18,842 nucleotides of DNA from UHGV virus genome UHGV-0125022. The stretch is one strand, 5' to 3'. Shown here piece after piece: positions 1,147 to 13,890 of this stretch (the stretch's first letter is position 1; each line of letters opens with the position of its first letter). Under the pieces are notes generated by a model, which saw only the letters and a list, made by a program, of their open reading frames with translations, was not told where the DNA came from and did not search any database. The DNA comes from a virus. The position numbers and the translations under genes were made by a program.

Positions 1147-1530
1147 TTACCTCGCTGTCAGTTGTTTTGATTTCCTGTAGCCTGCCGCGTAAATGGCTAC
1201 GTTTGGAAGACATACACCAGTTTCTGGTTGCTTATGTCCAAACTCATTCGCGTACACAATGGCCGCTCGCTCCAGATTGCGTCTGTATTCTTTCTGTTGC
1301 CAGATCACGTCCTGTGCCATGAACTTAATTGGCTTAGCGTCTTCTATGCGCTCAGGCGTTTCGTGAGTACCTTTAGCCTGAATCTGCGATCTGCTTAGAG
1401 TAGGGCGGTGTAATACTTCTGAACTTATTGCTTCTTCGCGGGCCAGTACGCCGTTAGCTAATGCCTTTGCCTTTAAACGCTCACGACGACGAGAACGTGA
1501 ATTGCCTTTGAACTGAGTTCTGCGTGTCAT
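1147..1530 (-). CDS. N: Transcription antitermination protein N (P22 gp24-like)
   Basis: N-terminal arginine-rich motif (RSRRRERLKAKA). C-terminus CLPNVAIYAAGYRKSKQLTAR resembles the P22 N C-terminus as I recall it. AGGAGG Shine-Dalgarno 6 nt upstream. Sits downstream of a boxB hairpin on the same strand. Confidence 0.8.
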   Translation of the reverse strand: MTRRTQFKGNSRSRRRERLKAKALANGVLAREEAISSEVLHRPTLSRSQIQAKGTHETPERIEDAKPIKFMAQDVIWQQKEYRRNLERAAIVYANEFGHKQPETGVCLPNVAIYAAGYRKSKQLTAR

Positions 1531-1935: not shown

Positions 1936-2104
1936 TATCGTATTGATTCTTATGGTGTTTTATTTTGTTGTAGGAATTCGACAGGATAAATAAAGAGATT
2001 TGAGGGAGATCTGGATTGCGTGGTTTAGCAAGTTGTATCAATCAGTTTTTCAATAAATACAATGAGTTATGTTTTTTAGGTGGGGGATCGAGAGGCAAAG
2101 AAAA

Positions 2105-2128
2105 CCCGGCGCTGAGGCCGGGTGAGAT
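2105..2128 (-). terminator. Rho-independent terminator closing the minus-strand cI cargo operon
   Basis: Minus strand reads CCCGGCCUCAGCGCCGGG (6-bp GC stem) followed by UUUUCUUUG, immediately after the stop of the 310-aa ORF. Confidence 0.6.
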
Positions 2129-2129
2129 A

Positions 2130-3062
2130 TTAAAGAACCGATTTAACAAGATGGTTTTTACGGTACAGACCTATGCGATCATTGTGAATCTCAGTAGTCT
2201 CCACTAAAAGAGAAACAATCTGTCCGACCTTGTGTTTTTTTTGTATTAAATCTAGCATTTCAATCGGATAGGAAGCCTTTAAATGTTCACCACCAACATC
2301 AAGCTCCAGCTTCCCATATTTGGATAGAACGACCAGTTCGCCTGTAACCGTTTCAGTAATGGGAGGTGATGAAATGGTTGATGTAAGTCTACTCACCAAG
2401 TACTTAATTTTATTGGAGTCAATAGTTACCACCTTGGTGCCATTACTAAATGGACCGGTCCAACTTGCATCAAATGTTAAGTTGTGTTTATCGCATTCCT
2501 CTACGATTCTCTTAAGGCTTACAGTGGAATTGTATCCAATTTCAGCGACGTGATTCATGAAGTTGTTGTCGTCATCGCTTAACAACAAATCGAATATGCC
2601 TTTTACAGCCTTGCTGGGTACTGTTTCTACTAATTCTGCTATTCCTGTAGAGAAGGTGACGCCCAATTTTGTAGACCCAGGGGATAAATCAGCCAGCCTG
2701 AGGTTTAAGGAGCTTTTCACGTCGTAGGGAACTTTTTTTGAGTCCTTGCCTGAGGCAATTTTGTGTGTTGCTCTTTGTATTAGCGCTGCAAGATTTGTTG
2801 AAATAGCCCCAAGCAGCTCTAAAGGAATAGAGCCAAAGTCAACCTCAGAGCCTTTCAGCCGCAGCTCAAAAAAATCGATAAGTGGGTGCCGACTATCTTG
2901 CTTTAATTTTTCGGCCTTCAAATCGCTCAGATGAGAATCCATGGAGCGATAAAGAAGCATGTCAGCAAAGGACCTGGTTTTGTTTTGCTTCATTGCATCG
3001 ACTTCTTTTTGAATGAAATCAATGCGTTTATCGCAATTTTTAAACATTGATTTATCATTCAT
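2130..3062 (-). CDS. Hypothetical 310-aa protein, distal gene of the two-gene module downstream of cI; candidate superinfection-exclusion or defence effector
   Basis: Long ORF with GAGGA Shine-Dalgarno 8 nt upstream. Start overlaps the upstream stop as ATGA. AT-rich. No motif I can assign. Confidence 0.7.
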   Translation of the reverse strand: MNDKSMFKNCDKRIDFIQKEVDAMKQNKTRSFADMLLYRSMDSHLSDLKAEKLKQDSRHPLIDFFELRLKGSEVDFGSIPLELLGAISTNLAALIQRATHKIASGKDSKKVPYDVKSSLNLRLADLSPGSTKLGVTFSTGIAELVETVPSKAVKGIFDLLLSDDDNNFMNHVAEIGYNSTVSLKRIVEECDKHNLTFDASWTGPFSNGTKVVTIDSNKIKYLVSRLTSTISSPPITETVTGELVVLSKYGKLELDVGGEHLKASYPIEMLDLIQKKHKVGQIVSLLVETTEIHNDRIGLYRKNHLVKSVL

Positions 3063-3538
3063 AAAAAAATCCTCACTAACCCTTTCGGGTTTTCACTGCG
3101 ATCAAAACCAAACCAACCGCGCCAGTAGCTACGCCAGTACTCATAATCATAGTTAGGGTCATCTAAATTCTTCATGAGTAGTAGGACATCAATTTTGTAG
3201 TTTTGTTTGATGTAGTTTCGGTCAAGCAAATTATCGACGCGGCCCCGAAGCATGACAGGTATTGAGTTTATATTGCTATAGTCACATACCAACAAAATAT
3301 CAATATCATCAGGCTCTGGTTTAGACGTGGTGTATGAACCATCAACCCATATTTCTGTAAAACAGCCATATTGAGCAGATAATTCTCGAATAGATTCGAG
3401 TAGCTGTATAAAATTACAGTATAGCATGCCTCGCCTGGATGATGAAGGAAAGCAATCGACACAATACGATTTTAATCCAGCTTCATCCATGTCATGGAAC
3501 CCTGGCTCAAACAGGGGTGGGTAATTAATTTTATCCAT
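3059..3538 (-). CDS. Minimal nucleotidyltransferase (Pol-beta superfamily, MNT-like) fold protein, 159 aa
   Basis: WVDGSYTTSKPEPDDIDILLV matches the hG[GS]-x9-13-Dh[DE]h nucleotidyltransferase signature. A further Asp-bearing strand KIDVLLL lies downstream. AAGG Shine-Dalgarno upstream. Confidence 0.65.
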   Translation of the reverse strand: MDKINYPPLFEPGFHDMDEAGLKSYCVDCFPSSSRRGMLYCNFIQLLESIRELSAQYGCFTEIWVDGSYTTSKPEPDDIDILLVCDYSNINSIPVMLRGRVDNLLDRNYIKQNYKIDVLLLMKNLDDPNYDYEYWRSYWRGWFGFDRSENPKGLVRIFL

Positions 3539-3737
3539 AAAAAACCTTGCTATACATTTGTTTTTTTATTAAAAATCTAACCACCGAAATGGTGACGGCA
3601 AGATGTTACATGGGGTTACAATCAGCCAATACACCGCATTAAATAATTTTTTCACCAGCTATGCGCCGACCAGAACACCTTGCCCATCACCCAAACGTCT
3701 CTTCAGGCCACTGGCTATCAGCTATGGGACGATGAAG

Positions 3738-4442
3738 TCACGAACTTTTCAGCCACTCCCTTGCCTCGATGTCATCCAGATGGCGAGATTGCTTCAGAAT
3801 ACCAGCCACATACTCCACCTTTGCTACTTGATGATAAGGCAACGTTATTGGCCTGTGGTCTTGGTTGATGCTTGTAAATTGGTATTCTCCATCTCTGTCA
3901 TAGCCAAGAACCTTAATCATGTTGTGTCCTTCAACGGTTCTGACAAACACCTCATCACCCGGGAATACTTTGGTGTTAGGCTCAATGAGTACATATTCTC
4001 CTGATTTTATTCTAGGCCACATGCTGTCTCCTTTCACACGAAGGCCAAAGGCATCTGGATCATCGCTATAAATTTTGAGCCACCCATCGCGCTCTTCGGT
4101 CATCTCGATGGCACCATCAACACCAAGAATTGCCTCACCAACCACGCGCACTAACCCTTTTCTTACCTGACCGACAAAAGTTAAAGAATCTGAGCATGAT
4201 GCAATTGGTGTTACATCATGTACCAAATCAAGCCACCCATTAGGTAACCCAAGTGCGGCTTCAAATTTTCTTGCTAGTTTATCCCCTATGTTTCGAGTGC
4301 TTTTTTCACCGGAGACTTGCGTGAGTTGAGAAGGGCTAACCCCAAGCTTATCGGCAAAGCTTGCATTAGTGTTACCCGCGATTTTTTTATGCTCATCTAG
4401 CAAAAACGCCAGATTCGATTTGCGAATATCTTTGTTTTCCAT
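3738..4442 (-). CDS. cI: CI-type prophage repressor (N-terminal HTH plus C-terminal S24/LexA-like autopeptidase domain)
   Basis: 234-aa protein with an HTH-like N-terminus and C-terminal S24-type domain (GDSMWPRIKSGEYVLIE, then a downstream Lys). Divergent from cro across an operator-rich intergenic region. Confidence 0.9.
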   Translation of the reverse strand: MENKDIRKSNLAFLLDEHKKIAGNTNASFADKLGVSPSQLTQVSGEKSTRNIGDKLARKFEAALGLPNGWLDLVHDVTPIASCSDSLTFVGQVRKGLVRVVGEAILGVDGAIEMTEERDGWLKIYSDDPDAFGLRVKGDSMWPRIKSGEYVLIEPNTKVFPGDEVFVRTVEGHNMIKVLGYDRDGEYQFTSINQDHRPITLPYHQVAKVEYVAGILKQSRHLDDIEAREWLKSS

Positions 4443-5256: not shown

Positions 5257-6102
5257 ATGACAAATACAGCAAAAATACTCAACTTCGGCAGAGGTAACTT
5301 TGCCGAACAGGAGCTAAGAGTGGCTGATATCGATGATGGTTACACCAGATTCGCTAACGAGCTGCTGGAAGCTATCGCAAGTGCCGATTTAACCGCTCGC
5401 CAGTTGAAAGTTATGCTGGCCTACGTCCGGAAAACATATGGATTCAATAAGAAAACAGATCGAATAGCCGATGAGCAAATTGCTCAGTTAACAGGACTAT
5501 CAAGGCAGAATGTTAACAAGGCTAAAAAAGAACTGATTTCAATGAATTGCCTGTTTATGGATGGAAATCAAATCGGTGTAGACAGGGAGGTATCTGCGTG
5601 GCAATTCAGCAAGTGTCTCCAAGTTAGCAACTTTGTCTCGAAGTTAGAGACAAAAAATGTCTCCAAATTAGAGACACTCAATGTCTCGAAGTTAGAGACA
5701 CACAAAAGACATTCTTTAAAGACAAAAGAAAATATTAATAAACCCCCTATATCCCCCAAAAAAATTTCTCAGAAGTTCGACCCGCTAGAAACAGAGTTGC
5801 CTGATTGGTTATCGGCAGAAACATGGTTGTCGTGGGTTACCTATCGCAAGGAGATAGGTAAGTCGATCAAGTCTAAGCAAAGCGTCACTCAGGCTATCAA
5901 CGTTCTAAGCAGAAGTCTGGAGAAGGGATATACACCTGAAGAAATTATAAACCAGAGCATCGCCAGTGGTTGGCAGGGGATTTTTGAACCCAAGACTCCA
6001 AAGGGGAAATCTCAACCGAGGCCGCAGCAGCGAGCTATGCAGGAAAACTTTGCCGCCAAAGATTACGGGCAAACTGAAATGCCTTCATGGGCGCAGGAGT
6101 GA
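5257..6102 (+). CDS. O: Replication initiator O (lambda O-like N-terminal domain)
   Basis: N-terminus MTNTAKILNFGRGNFA...DDGY matches lambda O as recalled. Internal repeat peptide VSKLET x3 is encoded by the origin iterons. Confidence 0.9.
   Translation: MTNTAKILNFGRGNFAEQELRVADIDDGYTRFANELLEAIASADLTARQLKVMLAYVRKTYGFNKKTDRIADEQIAQLTGLSRQNVNKAKKELISMNCLFMDGNQIGVDREVSAWQFSKCLQVSNFVSKLETKNVSKLETLNVSKLETHKRHSLKTKENINKPPISPKKISQKFDPLETELPDWLSAETWLSWVTYRKEIGKSIKSKQSVTQAINVLSRSLEKGYTPEEIINQSIASGWQGIFEPKTPKGKSQPRPQQRAMQENFAAKDYGQTEMPSWAQE
5614..5745. repeat. Origin of replication inside O: four about 19-bp palindromic iterons (TGTCTCnAAnTTAGAGACA; one degenerate) at 24-bp period, then an AT-rich tract
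   Basis: Iterons at 5614-5632 (degenerate), 5634-5652, 5658-5676 and 5682-5700. AT-rich ACAAAAGACATTCTTTAAAGACAAAAGAAAATATTAATAAA follows. Same architecture as lambda ori. Confidence 0.8.
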
Positions 6103-6104
6103 AT

Positions 6105-6998
6105 ATGAATACGACAAATGGTTACAATCTGGCACTGCAAAGGCAACTTGTAGACTCAAAAATCAATGACATTTCTGATCTGAAACAGAAACTTGAGTTT
6201 AGCAAAATTGGATCAGTATCAGATGGAATGTCAGTTACCAGCACAGTGGAAGAGTGCGAGAAACACGGTAAATATACTTCCTATGAGAAATATCTGACCA
6301 TCTCAGGAAAAAGAATTACTTCAAGTAAATCTGAGTGCCCACAGTGCCTTGAGGAGAAAATTCGTAAGAAAGAGATTGAACGTGAGCAGGCAGAACAAAG
6401 AGCAAGACAATCAAAAATTGAATATTTGTTGAATTCTCTCAATATTCCAGAGAGGTTCAAAAATTGCACTCTTCAGAATTATGAGCCTGTTAACGATGAT
6501 GCAAAGCGAGTTCTTAAGGTATGCCAGGCATATGCCAGTAAGTGGCCTGAACGCCTTCAAAAAGGTGGCGGACTGGTCATGTGTGGTAAGCCTGGAACTG
6601 GAAAGAACCACCTTGCACTGGCTATCGCTAGGCACGCCATTATCGAGCATCAAAGCTCTGTGATATTTACCACTGCGTTGAAAATTGCCAGAGAGTACAA
6701 ATCAACATGGTCTAAGGCCGCAACCAGAACTGAAGAAGAAGTCATTAGGCAATTTACGCATCCTGACTTGTTAATAATCGATGAGGTTGGCGTGCAGTTC
6801 GGCAGTGATGCTGAAAAGCTAATCATGTTCGAAATTATCAACACCAGATATGAATACATGAAGCCAACAATCCTGATTAGTAATCAGAGCAAAGATGAAC
6901 TTTCGGCATTCATTGGTGAGCGTGTTATTGACAGGATGAATGATGGCGGAGGGTGCACTCTTGCGTTTACATGGGATAGTTACAGGAGCAGATCGTGA
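6105..6998 (+). CDS. DnaC/IstB-type AAA+ helicase loader (functional counterpart of lambda P)
   Basis: Walker A GKPGTGKNHLA and Walker B LLIIDEVG. AGGAGTGA Shine-Dalgarno before the ATG at 6105. The ORF track extends to 6087, but 6105 is preferred. Confidence 0.85.
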   Translation: MNTTNGYNLALQRQLVDSKINDISDLKQKLEFSKIGSVSDGMSVTSTVEECEKHGKYTSYEKYLTISGKRITSSKSECPQCLEEKIRKKEIEREQAEQRARQSKIEYLLNSLNIPERFKNCTLQNYEPVNDDAKRVLKVCQAYASKWPERLQKGGGLVMCGKPGTGKNHLALAIARHAIIEHQSSVIFTTALKIAREYKSTWSKAATRTEEEVIRQFTHPDLLIIDEVGVQFGSDAEKLIMFEIINTRYEYMKPTILISNQSKDELSAFIGERVIDRMNDGGGCTLAFTWDSYRSRS

Positions 6999-8758: not shown

Positions 8759-8934
8759 TGCTTAGCCCATCCCAATCCCTTCAATACCAGAAAGAAAGCG
8801 TCGAGCGGGCTTTAACGTGCGCTAACTGCGGTCAGAAGCTGCATGTGCTGGAAGTTCACGTGTGTGAGCACTGCTGCGCAGAACTGATGAGCGATCCGAA
8901 TAGCTCAATGTACGAGGAAGAAGACGATGAATGA
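8758..8934 (+). CDS. ninF: NinF-like small Cys-rich protein (58 aa)
   Basis: Hand-translated: [58 protein letters not shown]. Too short for the ORF track. TAATG overlap with the upstream stop. Matches lambda NinF as recalled. Confidence 0.7.
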   Translation: MLSPSQSLQYQKESVERALTCANCGQKLHVLEVHVCEHCCAELMSDPNSSMYEEEDDE

Positions 8935-9649
8935 GTTAATAAATGGCAATGCCATCAAAATGACAAGCATTGAAATCGCTGAGTTGGTGGGTAAGCGTCA
9001 TGACAATGTGAAACGTACCATCGAAACGCTGGCTAAAAATGGTGTTATCCGGCTTCCTCAAATTGAGGTTTCCGAAAGAATCAATAACTTAGGGTTCAAT
9101 GTTCAGTACGAGCATTACGTCTTCGAAGGCGAACAAGGTAAGCGAGATAGTATTGTTGTTGTTGCCCAGTTGTCGCCAGAGTTCACCGCTCGCCTTGTTG
9201 ACCGCTGGCGAGAGCTTGAAGAAACTGCGGTTAATATCCCCAAAACGCTACCAGAAGCGTTGCGCCTTGCTGCTGATCTTGCTGAGCAGAAAATGCAACT
9301 GGAAAACCAGCTCGCAATTGCCGCACCTAAAGTTGAGTTTGCCGATCGCGTTGGCGAGGCCAGCGGAATTTTGATTGGAAACTTTGCAAAGGTTGTTGGA
9401 ATTGGTCCAAACAAACTGTTTGCGTGGATGCGCGATCACAAAATCCTTATTGCTTCAGGTTCCCGGCGCAATGTGCCAATGCAGGAATATATGGAGCGCG
9501 GCTATTTCACAGTGAAAGAAACAGCGGTCAACACAAATCACGGAATACAGATATCGTTCACCACAAAAATCACCGGGCGTGGTCAACAGTGGCTGACCAG
9601 AAAGCTGCTCGATAACGGAATGCTGAAAGTAACAGGGGAGGCTGCTTAA
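8927..9649 (+). CDS. Phage antirepressor (N-terminal Rha-type domain plus C-terminal KilA-C/AntB-type domain)
   Basis: N-terminal SIEIAELVGKRHDNVKRTIE is the Rha-family hallmark. 240 aa with the C-terminal region typical of KilA-C antirepressors. Confidence 0.75.
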   Translation: MNELINGNAIKMTSIEIAELVGKRHDNVKRTIETLAKNGVIRLPQIEVSERINNLGFNVQYEHYVFEGEQGKRDSIVVVAQLSPEFTARLVDRWRELEETAVNIPKTLPEALRLAADLAEQKMQLENQLAIAAPKVEFADRVGEASGILIGNFAKVVGIGPNKLFAWMRDHKILIASGSRRNVPMQEYMERGYFTVKETAVNTNHGIQISFTTKITGRGQQWLTRKLLDNGMLKVTGEAA

Positions 9650-10298: not shown

Positions 10299-10483
10299 AC
10301 GCCACAATTCAAACGATACCAGAGCTTCTTATCCAGACACGAGGCAATCAGACCGAAGTGGCGAGGATGCTTTCCTGCGCAAGAGGAACAGTGCTCAAGT
10401 ACAACCGAGACAGAAAAGGCGAGCGTCACGTAATAGTTAACGGCGTCCTGATGGTCAAACAGGGCAAGAGGGGTAGACCATGA
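10295..10483 (+). CDS. ninH: NinH-like protein
   Basis: TIPELLIQTRGNQTEVARMLSCARGTVLKY resembles lambda NinH as recalled. Located just before Q. Confidence 0.75.
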   Translation: MNATIQTIPELLIQTRGNQTEVARMLSCARGTVLKYNRDRKGERHVIVNGVLMVKQGKRGRP

Positions 10484-11103
10484 GACTCGAAAGCGTAGCT
10501 AAATTTCATTCGCCAAAAAGCCCGATGATGAGCGACTCACCACGGGCTACGGCTTCTGACTCTCTTTCCGGTACTGATGTGATGGCTGCTATGGGGATGG
10601 CGCAATCACAAGCCGGATTTGGAATGGCTGCGTTCTGTGGTAAGCACGAACTCAGCCAGAATGACAAACAAAAAGCCATCAACTATCTGATGCAATTTGC
10701 ACACAAGGTATCGGGGAAATACCGTGGCGTTGCAAAGCTTGAAGGAAATACTAAGGCAAAGGTACTGCAAGTGCTCGCAACATTCGCTTATGCGGATTAT
10801 TGCCGTAGTGCCGCGACGCCGGGAGCAAGGTGCAGAGATTGCCACGGTACAGGCCGTGCGGTTGATATATCAAAAACAGAGCTGTGGGGGAGAGTTGTTG
10901 AGAAAGAATGCGGAAGATGCAAAGGTGTCGGCTATTCAAGAATGCCAGCAAGCGCCGCATATCGCGCTGTGACGATGCTAATACCCAACCTTACCCAACC
11001 AACCTGGTCACGCACTGTTAAGCCGCTGTATGACGCTCTGGTGGTGCAATGCCACAAGGAAGAGTCAATCGCAGACAACATTTTGAATGCGGTCACACGT
11101 TAG
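10480..11103 (+). CDS. Q: Late-gene antiterminator Q (lambda Q type)
   Basis: 207 aa. Sequence matches lambda Q over essentially the full length as I recall it, including the zinc-binding CRDCHGTGR...CGRCKG. A lambda-like pR' follows. Confidence 0.9.
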   Translation: MRLESVAKFHSPKSPMMSDSPRATASDSLSGTDVMAAMGMAQSQAGFGMAAFCGKHELSQNDKQKAINYLMQFAHKVSGKYRGVAKLEGNTKAKVLQVLATFAYADYCRSAATPGARCRDCHGTGRAVDISKTELWGRVVEKECGRCKGVGYSRMPASAAYRAVTMLIPNLTQPTWSRTVKPLYDALVVQCHKEESIADNILNAVTR

Positions 11104-11278: not shown

Positions 11279-11695
11279 TTAAGGGAGGGTTTTCATTACG
11301 CTATCAATCTCCCTTCCTTCAAATCTTGAAGTCCAGCCGCAGGAGCCGCAATGGTAAGGAAAGTCATCGAACCCGCTACCGACCTGTTTAAGACAGTTGG
11401 GGCAATAAACCGCGCTGATATACCCACCCGCGGGATTTTTTCTAAAGGCCGCACCCATGTGCTCGACAAACTCATCCTTTGCCCGATAAGCCGCTATTTC
11501 CTTCTCAAGTTCTACGTTCTTGGCTTTCGCCTCGGCAAGTTCTGCTATGGTGGCAGCATGGGCTTTTTGAAGTACGTCGATCTGCTCTCCAATGAAAGCG
11601 ATGCGCTCGCGCAGGACCTCGTTACTTTGCACAGCAGAAAGCGCGCCGATCCCGTTTTTAAGGGACGCGATAAGTAATCCTACATCCATGGTCAT
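11279..11695 (-). CDS. Hypothetical cargo protein: N-terminal coiled-coil-like region plus C-terminal CxxC...CxxC zinc ribbon, convergent to late transcription
   Basis: 138-aa ORF. C-terminal CPNC-x14-CGSC. N-terminal heptad-like, Ala/Glu/Lys-rich segment. AGGGA Shine-Dalgarno. Start may be M1 (11695) or M3 (11689). Confidence 0.6.
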   Translation of the reverse strand: MTMDVGLLIASLKNGIGALSAVQSNEVLRERIAFIGEQIDVLQKAHAATIAELAEAKAKNVELEKEIAAYRAKDEFVEHMGAAFRKNPAGGYISAVYCPNCLKQVGSGFDDFPYHCGSCGWTSRFEGREIDSVMKTLP

Positions 11696-11944
11696 TCCCT
11701 AATTGTCTGTGGAATGACCAATTTAGCAATTTCCTTTATCTGTGGAAAGCAGGGAAACCACGCGCCGGGCGTGGATAAATATCCCGGTATTGAATCGACT
11801 GTTGGCTGCCGCTTGGCGGCCTTTTTCATTTCAGGCTCACGGGAATCATCCGCTACGTGCTTTGTTGATAAATCCATCCCGTGAAGCCTGACCCTTTTCA
11901 AACACACACACACAGCGCCATCCGAAAAATCGGAGGTGAGGCCT

Positions 11945-12268
11945 ATGAAAATGCCATACAAACAAGATTTCATCGCTGCGCTACTTGCCGCCAAGGAGCA
12001 GGGTATTGGTGCAATGCTGGCTTTTATCATGGCGTATCTGCGTGGTCGCTATAACGGCGGCGCGGTAACAAAAACGCTAATTGATGCGCTGATGTGCGCG
12101 ATGATTGCCTGGTTCGTTCGTGACCTTCTGGACTTTATCGGCCTGAGCAGCAACCTCGCCTACATAGCCAGCGTCTTTATTGGATACATCGGCACCGATT
12201 CGATCGGCAATCTTATTAAAAAACTTGCAGCAAAAAAGGCGGGAGTTGACGATGCAAACCAGTCCTGA
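11945..12268 (+). CDS. S: Class I holin S (lambda S type) with dual-start motif
   Basis: [27 protein letters not shown] resembles lambda S105/S107 as recalled. GGAGGTGA Shine-Dalgarno. ORF track begins at an in-frame GTG at 11936. Confidence 0.9.
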
Positions 12269-13222: not shown

Positions 13223-13371
13223 ACATCTGAATTTCACAGCGCATCTCACGCGCATATTACATCACCCGAGCCTTTCAGAAAGTTGAGCCTGAGAACTGCC
13301 GTATATGGTGGCGACCATCTCGGGGCGGCTTTTCTGTGAGACAGGCTCACTTTCTAAAAGGTAAAGACGCT

Positions 13372-13890
13372 ATGAATAATCCGTCAGTTATTCCGGCCTT
13401 CGACTTCCGCGAAATGGTCACGACCCTCGACAACAAGATAATCACCACATCACTCAAGGTGGCGGATTACTTTGGCAAGCGACACAAAGACGTTTTGCGT
13501 GCCATACGTAACCTGAAATGCTCCGATGACTTCACCCAGCGCAATTTTGCGCCCATTGATTTCATTGATAAAAATGGCGATGTTCAGCCTATGTATAACA
13601 TCACCCGCGACGGATGCATGATGCTAGTGATGGGATTCACTGGCAAAACAGCTGCCGCAGTGAAGGAGTGTTACATCAATGCCTTCAACTGGATGGCCGA
13701 GCAGCTAAACCGGCGCATGGCGATGGGTGAAGAATTGCAGCATCGCTACGCCATCAAAGAAACGCGCTCAAAGCTGAAAGGCACGATCGGAAGCCGTTTG
13801 ATGAACGAGCGGAAGAAAGAGAAGCGCGTCCTGGAGCTCGAACATGAGCACATCATGCAGGTAACGCAGCCGGAATTACTTATTGGCTGA
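13372..13890 (+). CDS. rha: Rha-family phage regulatory protein
   Basis: N-terminal TSLKVADYFGKRHKDVLRAIRNL is the Rha-domain hallmark. ORF track 13336..13890; ATG at 13372 preferred. Confidence 0.7.
   Translation: MNNPSVIPAFDFREMVTTLDNKIITTSLKVADYFGKRHKDVLRAIRNLKCSDDFTQRNFAPIDFIDKNGDVQPMYNITRDGCMMLVMGFTGKTAAAVKECYINAFNWMAEQLNRRMAMGEELQHRYAIKETRSKLKGTIGSRLMNERKKEKRVLELEHEHIMQVTQPELLIG

Follow-up and report, generated by a model that had tools for sequence, protein, structure and literature searches.

A minimal nucleotidyltransferase-fold protein and its predicted OB-fold partner form a conserved two-gene cassette behind the repressor of a lambdoid prophage

What does a small nucleotidyltransferase (NTase)-like protein do beside a phage repressor? 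This question was raised by the viral genome UHGV-0125022, of which a stretch of 18,842 nucleotides (hereafter the window) was analyzed. On its minus strand, gene A encodes a 159-aa protein and gene B, directly downstream, encodes its putative 310-aa partner. The original prediction, made from the letters alone, had seen in the 159-aa protein a minimal NTase site of the DNA polymerase beta (Pol beta) superfamily. The open reading frame (ORF) 3059..3538 (-) encodes exactly this protein, and all the strings quoted from it were found. Conservation and a predicted structure both supported the NTase site. We propose that A and B form a two-subunit system expressed in lysogens and most likely acting against superinfecting phages, a reading to which we give a probability of about one half.

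The DUF6932 family and the A–B pair are already catalogued, as a Pfam domain of unknown function (DUF) and as a PADLOC candidate, so the locus itself is no discovery. New here are the fold assignments, the partner with an oligonucleotide/oligosaccharide-binding (OB) fold, the modular partners with their common handle, and the placement after the repressor. The window pair is a member of the catalogue entry PDC-M63, since A and B both match it strongly and adjoin each other. In 10.1101/2024.01.29.577857, PDC-M63 belongs to a set of 145 untested "phage defence candidates", picked on account of their location inside BREX, DISARM or type I restriction–modification (RM) loci. It is a bioinformatic guilt-by-embedding nomination, with no function, fold or mechanism attached. 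The same source (supplementary table 8) also places the A family, as FAM_00167, in a commoner two-gene cassette (FAM_00167>>FAM_01519, 269 instances), which its authors rejected as a candidate. Literature searches returned no searchable paper naming "DUF6932" or "PF22014", and nothing relevant on an NTase paired with an OB fold or on the locus by accession or phage name.

Gene A matched PF22014 (DUF6932) with 87.3 bits against a cut-off of 27, and its residues 8-157 covered positions 7-141 of the 142-position profile. It also matched PDC-M63A of PADLOC (E = 1.8e-41) and phrog_9194 (E = 2.3e-64), for which PHROGs list the function as unknown. A match to the Pol beta palm in Pfam was sub-threshold, and PF01909 (NTP_transf_2) gave no match at E<=1; a precomputed PF01909 match was present in 3 of 95 gene A homologues. 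NCBIfam gave no match for gene A or gene B. At 50% identity, the DUF6932 family (E<=1e-3) fell into 3,693 clusters; nearly all of the 150 best-scoring clusters listed were stand-alone proteins of ~150 aa.

The 3D structure of the gene A protein was modeled using AlphaFold 2 (AF2), with a predicted local distance difference test (pLDDT) score of 95.9 and a predicted template modeling score of 0.89. The model displayed the NTase core: GS comes after strand 60-66, DxD stands at the start of strand 79-86, and strand 116-123 contains D117. This alpha-beta-alpha-beta-alpha-beta core superposed on solved NTases. In Foldseek searches against the PDB, the top ranks were taken by minimal nucleotidyltransferase (MNT) proteins (2rff, 7ae2_B), CdnC and Pol beta, with E-values no better than 4e-3; CdnB, CdnC and CdnG were among the weak structural matches. 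PDB sequence searches gave just weak alignments to Pol beta and CdnE, and a profile search aligned the motif weakly to the GS/DMD region of Pol beta (E 0.2). As judged from the model, the structure searches agree on the fold, yet it appears distant from all solved structures, and MNT-type enzymes appear to be its nearest solved relatives. Only ~85-100 of the 159 residues superposed on MNT structures; the gene A family has its own N-terminal beta/alpha element and RSYWRGWFGF helix. The structure comparison placed the family-specific parts in residues 1-33 and in the C-terminal helix. Of the N-terminal extension of ~70 residues that had been proposed, about half (residues 34-57) is the canonical helix alpha1.

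The signature lies in WVDGSYTTSKPEPDDIDILLV (gene A residues 64-84), where nine residues separate S68 from D78. The relaxed Pol beta pattern, G[GS]-x9-13-Dh[DE]h, was matched here and nowhere else when the window was translated in six frames (37,680 residues). The strict form starting with hG[GS], to which an almost ideal fit had been claimed, gave 0 matches because the residue preceding G67 is Asp66, which is not hydrophobic; Asp66 was at least 90% conserved. Since the relaxed pattern also arose in 1.5% of shuffled gene A proteins, the motif taken alone would be weak to modest evidence for an NTase site.

Conservation of the site was analyzed in 80 genomic homologues at 27-62% identity, drawn from many phyla, and in a 48-sequence alignment. 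W64, G67, S68, T71, P76, D78 and D80 were unchanged in all 80 homologues, K73 was kept in 77 and D117 in 67. In the 48-sequence alignment, G67, S68, T71, K73, P76, D78 and D80 were invariant, and D117 was at least 90% conserved. The GS/DxD residues are strictly conserved, and the motif is therefore not a chance match. The alignments indicate strict purifying selection on the GS...DxD...D residues. KIDVLLL (residues 115-121) had been suggested to supply the third carboxylate, in agreement with the strand position and conservation of D117. These results indicated that gene A encodes a real, strongly conserved minimal nucleotidyltransferase by fold and active site.

Two other features of the protein had been pointed out. 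One was the Trp/Tyr-rich C-terminus, YDYEYWRSYWRGWFGF (residues 130-145). Its RSYWRGWFGF part is a signature throughout the family: in the 48-sequence alignment most of its positions were invariant and the others reached at least 90% conservation; among the genomic loci, Y138 was kept in 70/80, W139 in 75/80, F/Y143 in 78/80 and G144 in 73/80. YDYEYW, by contrast, is an enterobacterial insertion. The other was the N-terminal cysteines, in CVDCF (residues 26-30), YC (40-41) and YGC (57-59). They proved to be no family feature: the family consensus is FVxxF. A zinc/Cys site at the N-terminus was considered and rejected. Outside Enterobacterales, C26, C29, C41 and C59 lack conservation, which makes a metal site improbable.

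Gene B overlaps gene A by 4 nt (ATGA). It matched PDC-M63B of PADLOC (E = 6.9e-45) and phrog_6603 (E = 2e-147), for which PHROGs list the function as unknown. A PDB sequence search returned only coiled-coil noise. In the AF2 model (pLDDT 83), N-terminal helices 10-25 and 32-58 were followed by an alpha/beta region and a C-terminal beta1-3/helix/beta4-5 arrangement, assigned to the OB fold. AsnRS-type anticodon-binding OB domains were among the structural matches. The invariant residues were glycines, leucines, W201 and S130, the last invariant in two independent alignments. No catalytic-looking polar residue and no Arg or His was conserved in the alignments, and the B alignment used against viral contigs had no conserved stretch. 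Since its invariant residues are only structural, gene B looks non-enzymatic. Median identity to the window proteins was 26% for B versus 37% for A, and A was the more conserved of the two in 46 of 48 loci, suggesting that gene B evolves faster than gene A.

In 74 of 80 genomic loci, an iterated hidden Markov model (HMM) search located a B-like ORF immediately downstream of A and in the same orientation. The same arrangement was present in 79 of 80 viral contigs and, as an A–B pair, in the Streptococcus satellite Javan304. The 74 linked loci cover Proteobacteria, Bacteroidota, Firmicutes, Acidobacteria, Verrucomicrobia, Nitrospirae and the Candidate Phyla Radiation (CPR). The linkage of B to A is close to obligate. 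Isolated phages carrying the pair were only temperate ones. Elsewhere, the flanks of the cassette varied and contained many mobile-element genes, occasionally also RM or HEC-01 genes. When 122 flanking proteins were scanned with Pfam and PADLOC, no recurrent third partner gene emerged, only scattered defence genes.

Four genomic loci (L015, L024, L046 and L075) carried B split into two ORFs (B region ~5400-6400) beside a full-length A. The catalytic GS/DxD/D residues were intact in L015, L024 and L046, the third Asp was replaced in L075 (D117A), and the C-terminal motif of gene A was degenerate in L046. The split genes could reflect real pseudogenisation of B or assembly frameshifts.

In loci lacking a canonical B, the gene downstream of A retained only the ~55-residue N-terminal helical module of B, joined to another part (Table 1). 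An HMM of this module alone retrieved the L017 partner with tetratricopeptide repeats (TPR) at E = 2e-5 among 5,678 ORFs. With the L071 TPR partner and the truncated L044 partner, the full-length B HMM gave weak scores of 19-22 bits, insufficient for a whole-protein match. Alignment placed the part common to the L017, L071, L044, L054 and L060 partners at the N-terminus. These comparisons point to a conserved handle with a swappable binding domain, the enzyme being constant.

One Bacteroidota metagenome-assembled genome (L080, 5001-8026) had, in place of B, an 856-aa HsdR-like protein (ResIII, Helicase_C, EcoEI_R_C) after the DUF6932 gene. Its first ~50 residues look similar to the B-type module, and this candidate was rejected, as the match was not statistically significant.

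Other DUF6932 genes were associated with ImmA/IrrE peptidases. Two independent metagenomic proteins, P0314 (L082) and P0327 (L083), are fusions of an M78/IrrE (ImmA-like) peptidase to DUF6932. No B-like gene was called beside P0327, and the L082 contig was too short to tell. In Streptococcus phage MissE1 (L164, 2929-3960), a DUF6932-like gene is flanked by a helix-turn-helix (HTH) repressor and a RelE-like gene on one side and by ImmA/IrrE on the other; a B-like gene was neither annotated nor found by tblastn. The fusions and the MissE1 layout suggest a link to ImmR/ImmA or CapH/CapP-type switches.

The 1.4-kb cassette of the window shared 99.7% identity with lambdoid phage mEpX1. A cassette of the same identity was present in prophages of 18 out of 5,426 complete E. 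coli genomes. The minus-strand order is N (1147..1530), B, A and cI, with cro, cII, O and P running rightwards. Lying between cI and N, the cassette fills the rexAB slot and is closed by a strong terminator. This slot and strand are those of lambda RexAB/BstA-type cargo (after cI, before N, terminator-closed), and the slot after the repressor is a known site for defence cargo, e.g. rexAB and BstA (PMC8585504). From this position, the cassette is probably co-transcribed with cI, and lysogen expression would be expected by analogy with RexAB cargo. Position alone is common to both: PADLOC models of RexA, RexB and BstA matched neither A nor B, and RexAB is a sensor plus a membrane protein, whereas A–B would be a soluble enzyme plus an OB-fold protein.

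About 190 nt of the leader (~3539..3715) move with the cassette into prophages having different repressors (L086, L092), which places a recombination boundary where the repressor gene ends. Otherwise, conservation of the upstream DNA did not extend beyond very close relatives. The gene preceding A was analyzed in 53 non-redundant viral loci and carried HTH_3 in 28, Peptidase_S24 in 25 and a CI-repressor domain in 9 of them; these repressors were only ~20% identical to one another. Rfam gave no credible leader match, the one hit (E 0.5) lying outside the leader.

Table 1. Coordinates of the cassette and its surroundings in the window, and genes replacing B in other loci (AF2, AlphaFold 2; HMM, hidden Markov model; OB, oligonucleotide/oligosaccharide-binding; TPR, tetratricopeptide repeats)
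Feature	Position or locus	Strand	Basis
Gene A: 159-aa minimal nucleotidyltransferase, Pfam DUF6932 / PADLOC PDC-M63A / PHROG 9194	3059..3538	-	ORF, family matches, AF2, NTase-fold matches
G67-S68...D78-I-D80-I81 codons: predicted nucleotide-binding GS loop and two metal-binding Asp	3296..3340	-	Conservation, relaxed motif
K115-L121 (KIDVLLL) codons: strand beta3 with D117, candidate third carboxylate	3176..3196	-	Conservation, AF2 strand
R136-F145 (RSYWRGWFGF) codons: family-specific C-terminal helix motif	3104..3133	-	Conservation, helix 132-143 in AF2
Gene B: 310-aa partner, PADLOC PDC-M63B / PHROG 6603, no Pfam family	2130..3062	-	Family matches, linkage, AF2 pLDDT 83
ATGA overlap of gene A stop and gene B start, predicted translational coupling	3059..3062	-	Read from sequence
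Gene B residues ~10-58: N-terminal helical module, proposed docking handle for A	2889..3035	-	Helices, HMM
Gene B residues ~233-310: C-terminal OB fold (beta1-3, helix, beta4-5)	2133..2366	-	
cI-type repressor (HTH + S24 peptidase)	3738..4442	-	Peptidase_S24 E=3.8e-16; mEpX1 annotation "prophage repressor"
Intrinsic terminator, 7 nt past B stop, end of cassette transcript	2104..2123	-	7-bp stem, 6 G-C pairs, then TTTCTTT
cI-A leader	3539..3737	-	Contains weak hairpin and T-run at 3580..3599
Downstream gene: N-terminal module + TPR repeats	L017, L071		
Downstream gene, 133-135 aa: module + short C-terminal β-domain, second B-HMM stretch (probably OB)	L054, L060		
Downstream gene: other, 165 aa	L044		
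Downstream gene: HsdR-like ResIII + EcoEI_R_C protein; N-terminal similarity not significant	L080		

In the proposed antiphage system, A and B would be one autonomous, mobile two-gene cassette. A is predicted to be a catalytically competent, Mg2+-dependent minimal NTase of the Pol beta superfamily. B would be its non-enzymatic partner, docking A through the conserved N-terminal helical module. The variable C-terminal part of B (alpha/beta domain plus OB here, TPR or a short beta-domain elsewhere) would recognise a trigger or substrate. For the OB form, the most likely target would be single-stranded nucleic acid. After recognition, A might transfer a nucleotide to the bound target or to cellular RNA and so block the superinfecting phage; candidate substrates are nucleic-acid 3' ends or a captured protein. 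A pair of an NTase and an OB-fold adaptor exists in the trypanosome editosome, where a terminal uridylyltransferase works with KREPA proteins. The likeness to A–B is one of architecture alone, with unrelated biology and without implied homology.

Several results weigh against this reading. Deletion of PDC-M63AB in E. coli NILS69 left the plating efficiency of 10 virulent phages unchanged (PMC12409345); this test, which left out temperate and single-stranded DNA (ssDNA) phages, was the only published experiment on PDC-M63 found in the literature. The immediate neighbours in 49 genomic loci showed no clear enrichment for known defence genes. The cI-A leader contained no promoter at the scan threshold and no structured RNA, and a weak hairpin is located between cI and A. 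The ImmA/IrrE fusions and adjacency could make A a sensor or regulator rather than an effector.

If the cassette is active as proposed, it would represent a widespread class of NTase-based mobile-element cargo with a partner unlike HEPN, AbiEi or Cap effectors, and both a DUF and a PADLOC candidate would gain a function. DUF6932 comprises ~3,700 clusters (50% identity) and ranges from CPR bacteria to Enterobacterales, occurring also in temperate phages and satellites. Because the mEpX1 copy sits in the classical rexAB slot of a phage growing on E. coli K-12, genetics, active-site mutants and biochemistry would be straightforward. A bolder form of the antiphage reading, which we regard as tentative at best, is that DUF6932 cassettes are an unrecognised modular immune architecture. 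An invariant NTase would dock on the handle of interchangeable recognition proteins (OB fold, TPR, possibly helicase-nuclease) and nucleotidylylate what these capture, for instance the 3' end of phage ssDNA or RNA, or a protein of the phage. The invader would be tagged directly by the enzyme, through neither a toxin–antitoxin (TA) nor a second-messenger mechanism.

Among other explanations, an unlikely one is a type VII-like TA or abortive-infection pair after the MntA–HepT model. A would nucleotidylylate B, e.g. at Ser130 on the tip of a flexible hairpin, and keep it inert; infection would stop the modification, and unmodified B would bind nucleic acid via its OB fold and arrest growth. MNT proteins are indeed the closest solved folds, the order of enzyme first and partner second with overlapping codons is that of MNT–HEPN, and Ser130 is the invariant residue noted above. 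B is split or missing while A is intact in L015, L024, L046, L075 and L017, as expected if B were a dispensable toxin. However, gene A shares the MNT-like fold and does not belong to the MNT antitoxin family, and B is an alpha/beta protein with an OB fold, not a HEPN RNase. B has neither the HEPN fold nor a conserved catalytic or Tyr acceptor residue; its sequence contained no Rx4-6H motif and no conserved Arg/His, and Pfam gave no HEPN match. A non-enzymatic OB-fold toxin would be unprecedented, and the TPR-swapped C-terminal domain of some loci is hard to square with a single toxic activity.

A non-defence role is also improbable. The cassette would be a lysogeny accessory tuning prophage or mobile-element regulation, for example by nucleotide signalling into repressor or ImmA/IrrE switches, or a plain addiction module. 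It stands immediately after repressors in phages and in a satellite, and the two M78/IrrE-DUF6932 fusions, the MissE1 gene between repressor and ImmA, where neither annotation nor tblastn showed a B-like gene, and the silent NILS69 deletion all fit this explanation. Against it, most genomic loci had no recognisable prophage genes in the sampled immediate flanks and came from very diverse phyla, the cassette was first picked up inside RM, BREX or DISARM loci, and the slot after the repressor is one known for defence cargo such as rexAB and BstA. The divergence of the upstream repressors, which are unrelated in sequence, argues against a specific regulatory partnership.

It is more doubtful still that A is a MenT/AbiEii-like toxin adding nucleotides to tRNA 3' ends, with B as the antitoxin sequestering it until infection. 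NTase-fold toxins acting on tRNA are established (MenT, AbiEii). Within the pair, the enzyme A is conserved whereas B evolves fast, and the AsnRS-type OB matches of B also speak for this explanation. MenT/AbiEii and the cGAS/DncV-like nucleotidyltransferases (CD-NTases) of cyclic oligonucleotide-based antiphage signaling systems (CBASS) share the Pol beta-type catalytic core with gene A and also belong to mobile defence contexts, but gene A is half their size or less. The AbiEii (DUF1814) domain has ~250-300 aa and follows AbiEi/MenA, whereas gene A has 159 aa with no second domain and follows cI. The A–B gene order is reversed relative to AbiEi–AbiEii. No Pfam AbiEii or PADLOC AbiE match was obtained at the locus. 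Where B is broken or absent, the active site of A stays intact, which is not expected of an unneutralised toxin. A CD-NTase domain has ~300-400 aa and is accompanied by effector/Cap genes, and A–B has neither; Pfam and PADLOC gave no CD-NTase match. PADLOC models of HEPN, AbiE, CBASS, Rex, SanaTA and PD-T7 systems gave no matches, and A–B is an NTase-based cassette distinct from MNT–HEPN, AbiE/MenT and CBASS.

A chance motif or an inactive pseudo-enzyme is highly improbable, as the catalytic residues are unchanged over 80 loci at such low identity, the top structural matches are all NTases, and some homologues also reach PF01909.

Other genes of the window were also noted. Two minus-strand ORFs of 138 and 112 aa (11279..11695 and 11692..12030) overlap by 4 nt just downstream of the Q antiterminator (10480..11103, +) and are opposed to the late operon. 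They had no Pfam or PADLOC match and may be a second cargo or a TA-like pair. The window also carries two Rha-family regulator genes, 8927..9649 (+) and 13336..13890 (+), the first of which also has a KilAC/ANT antirepressor domain.

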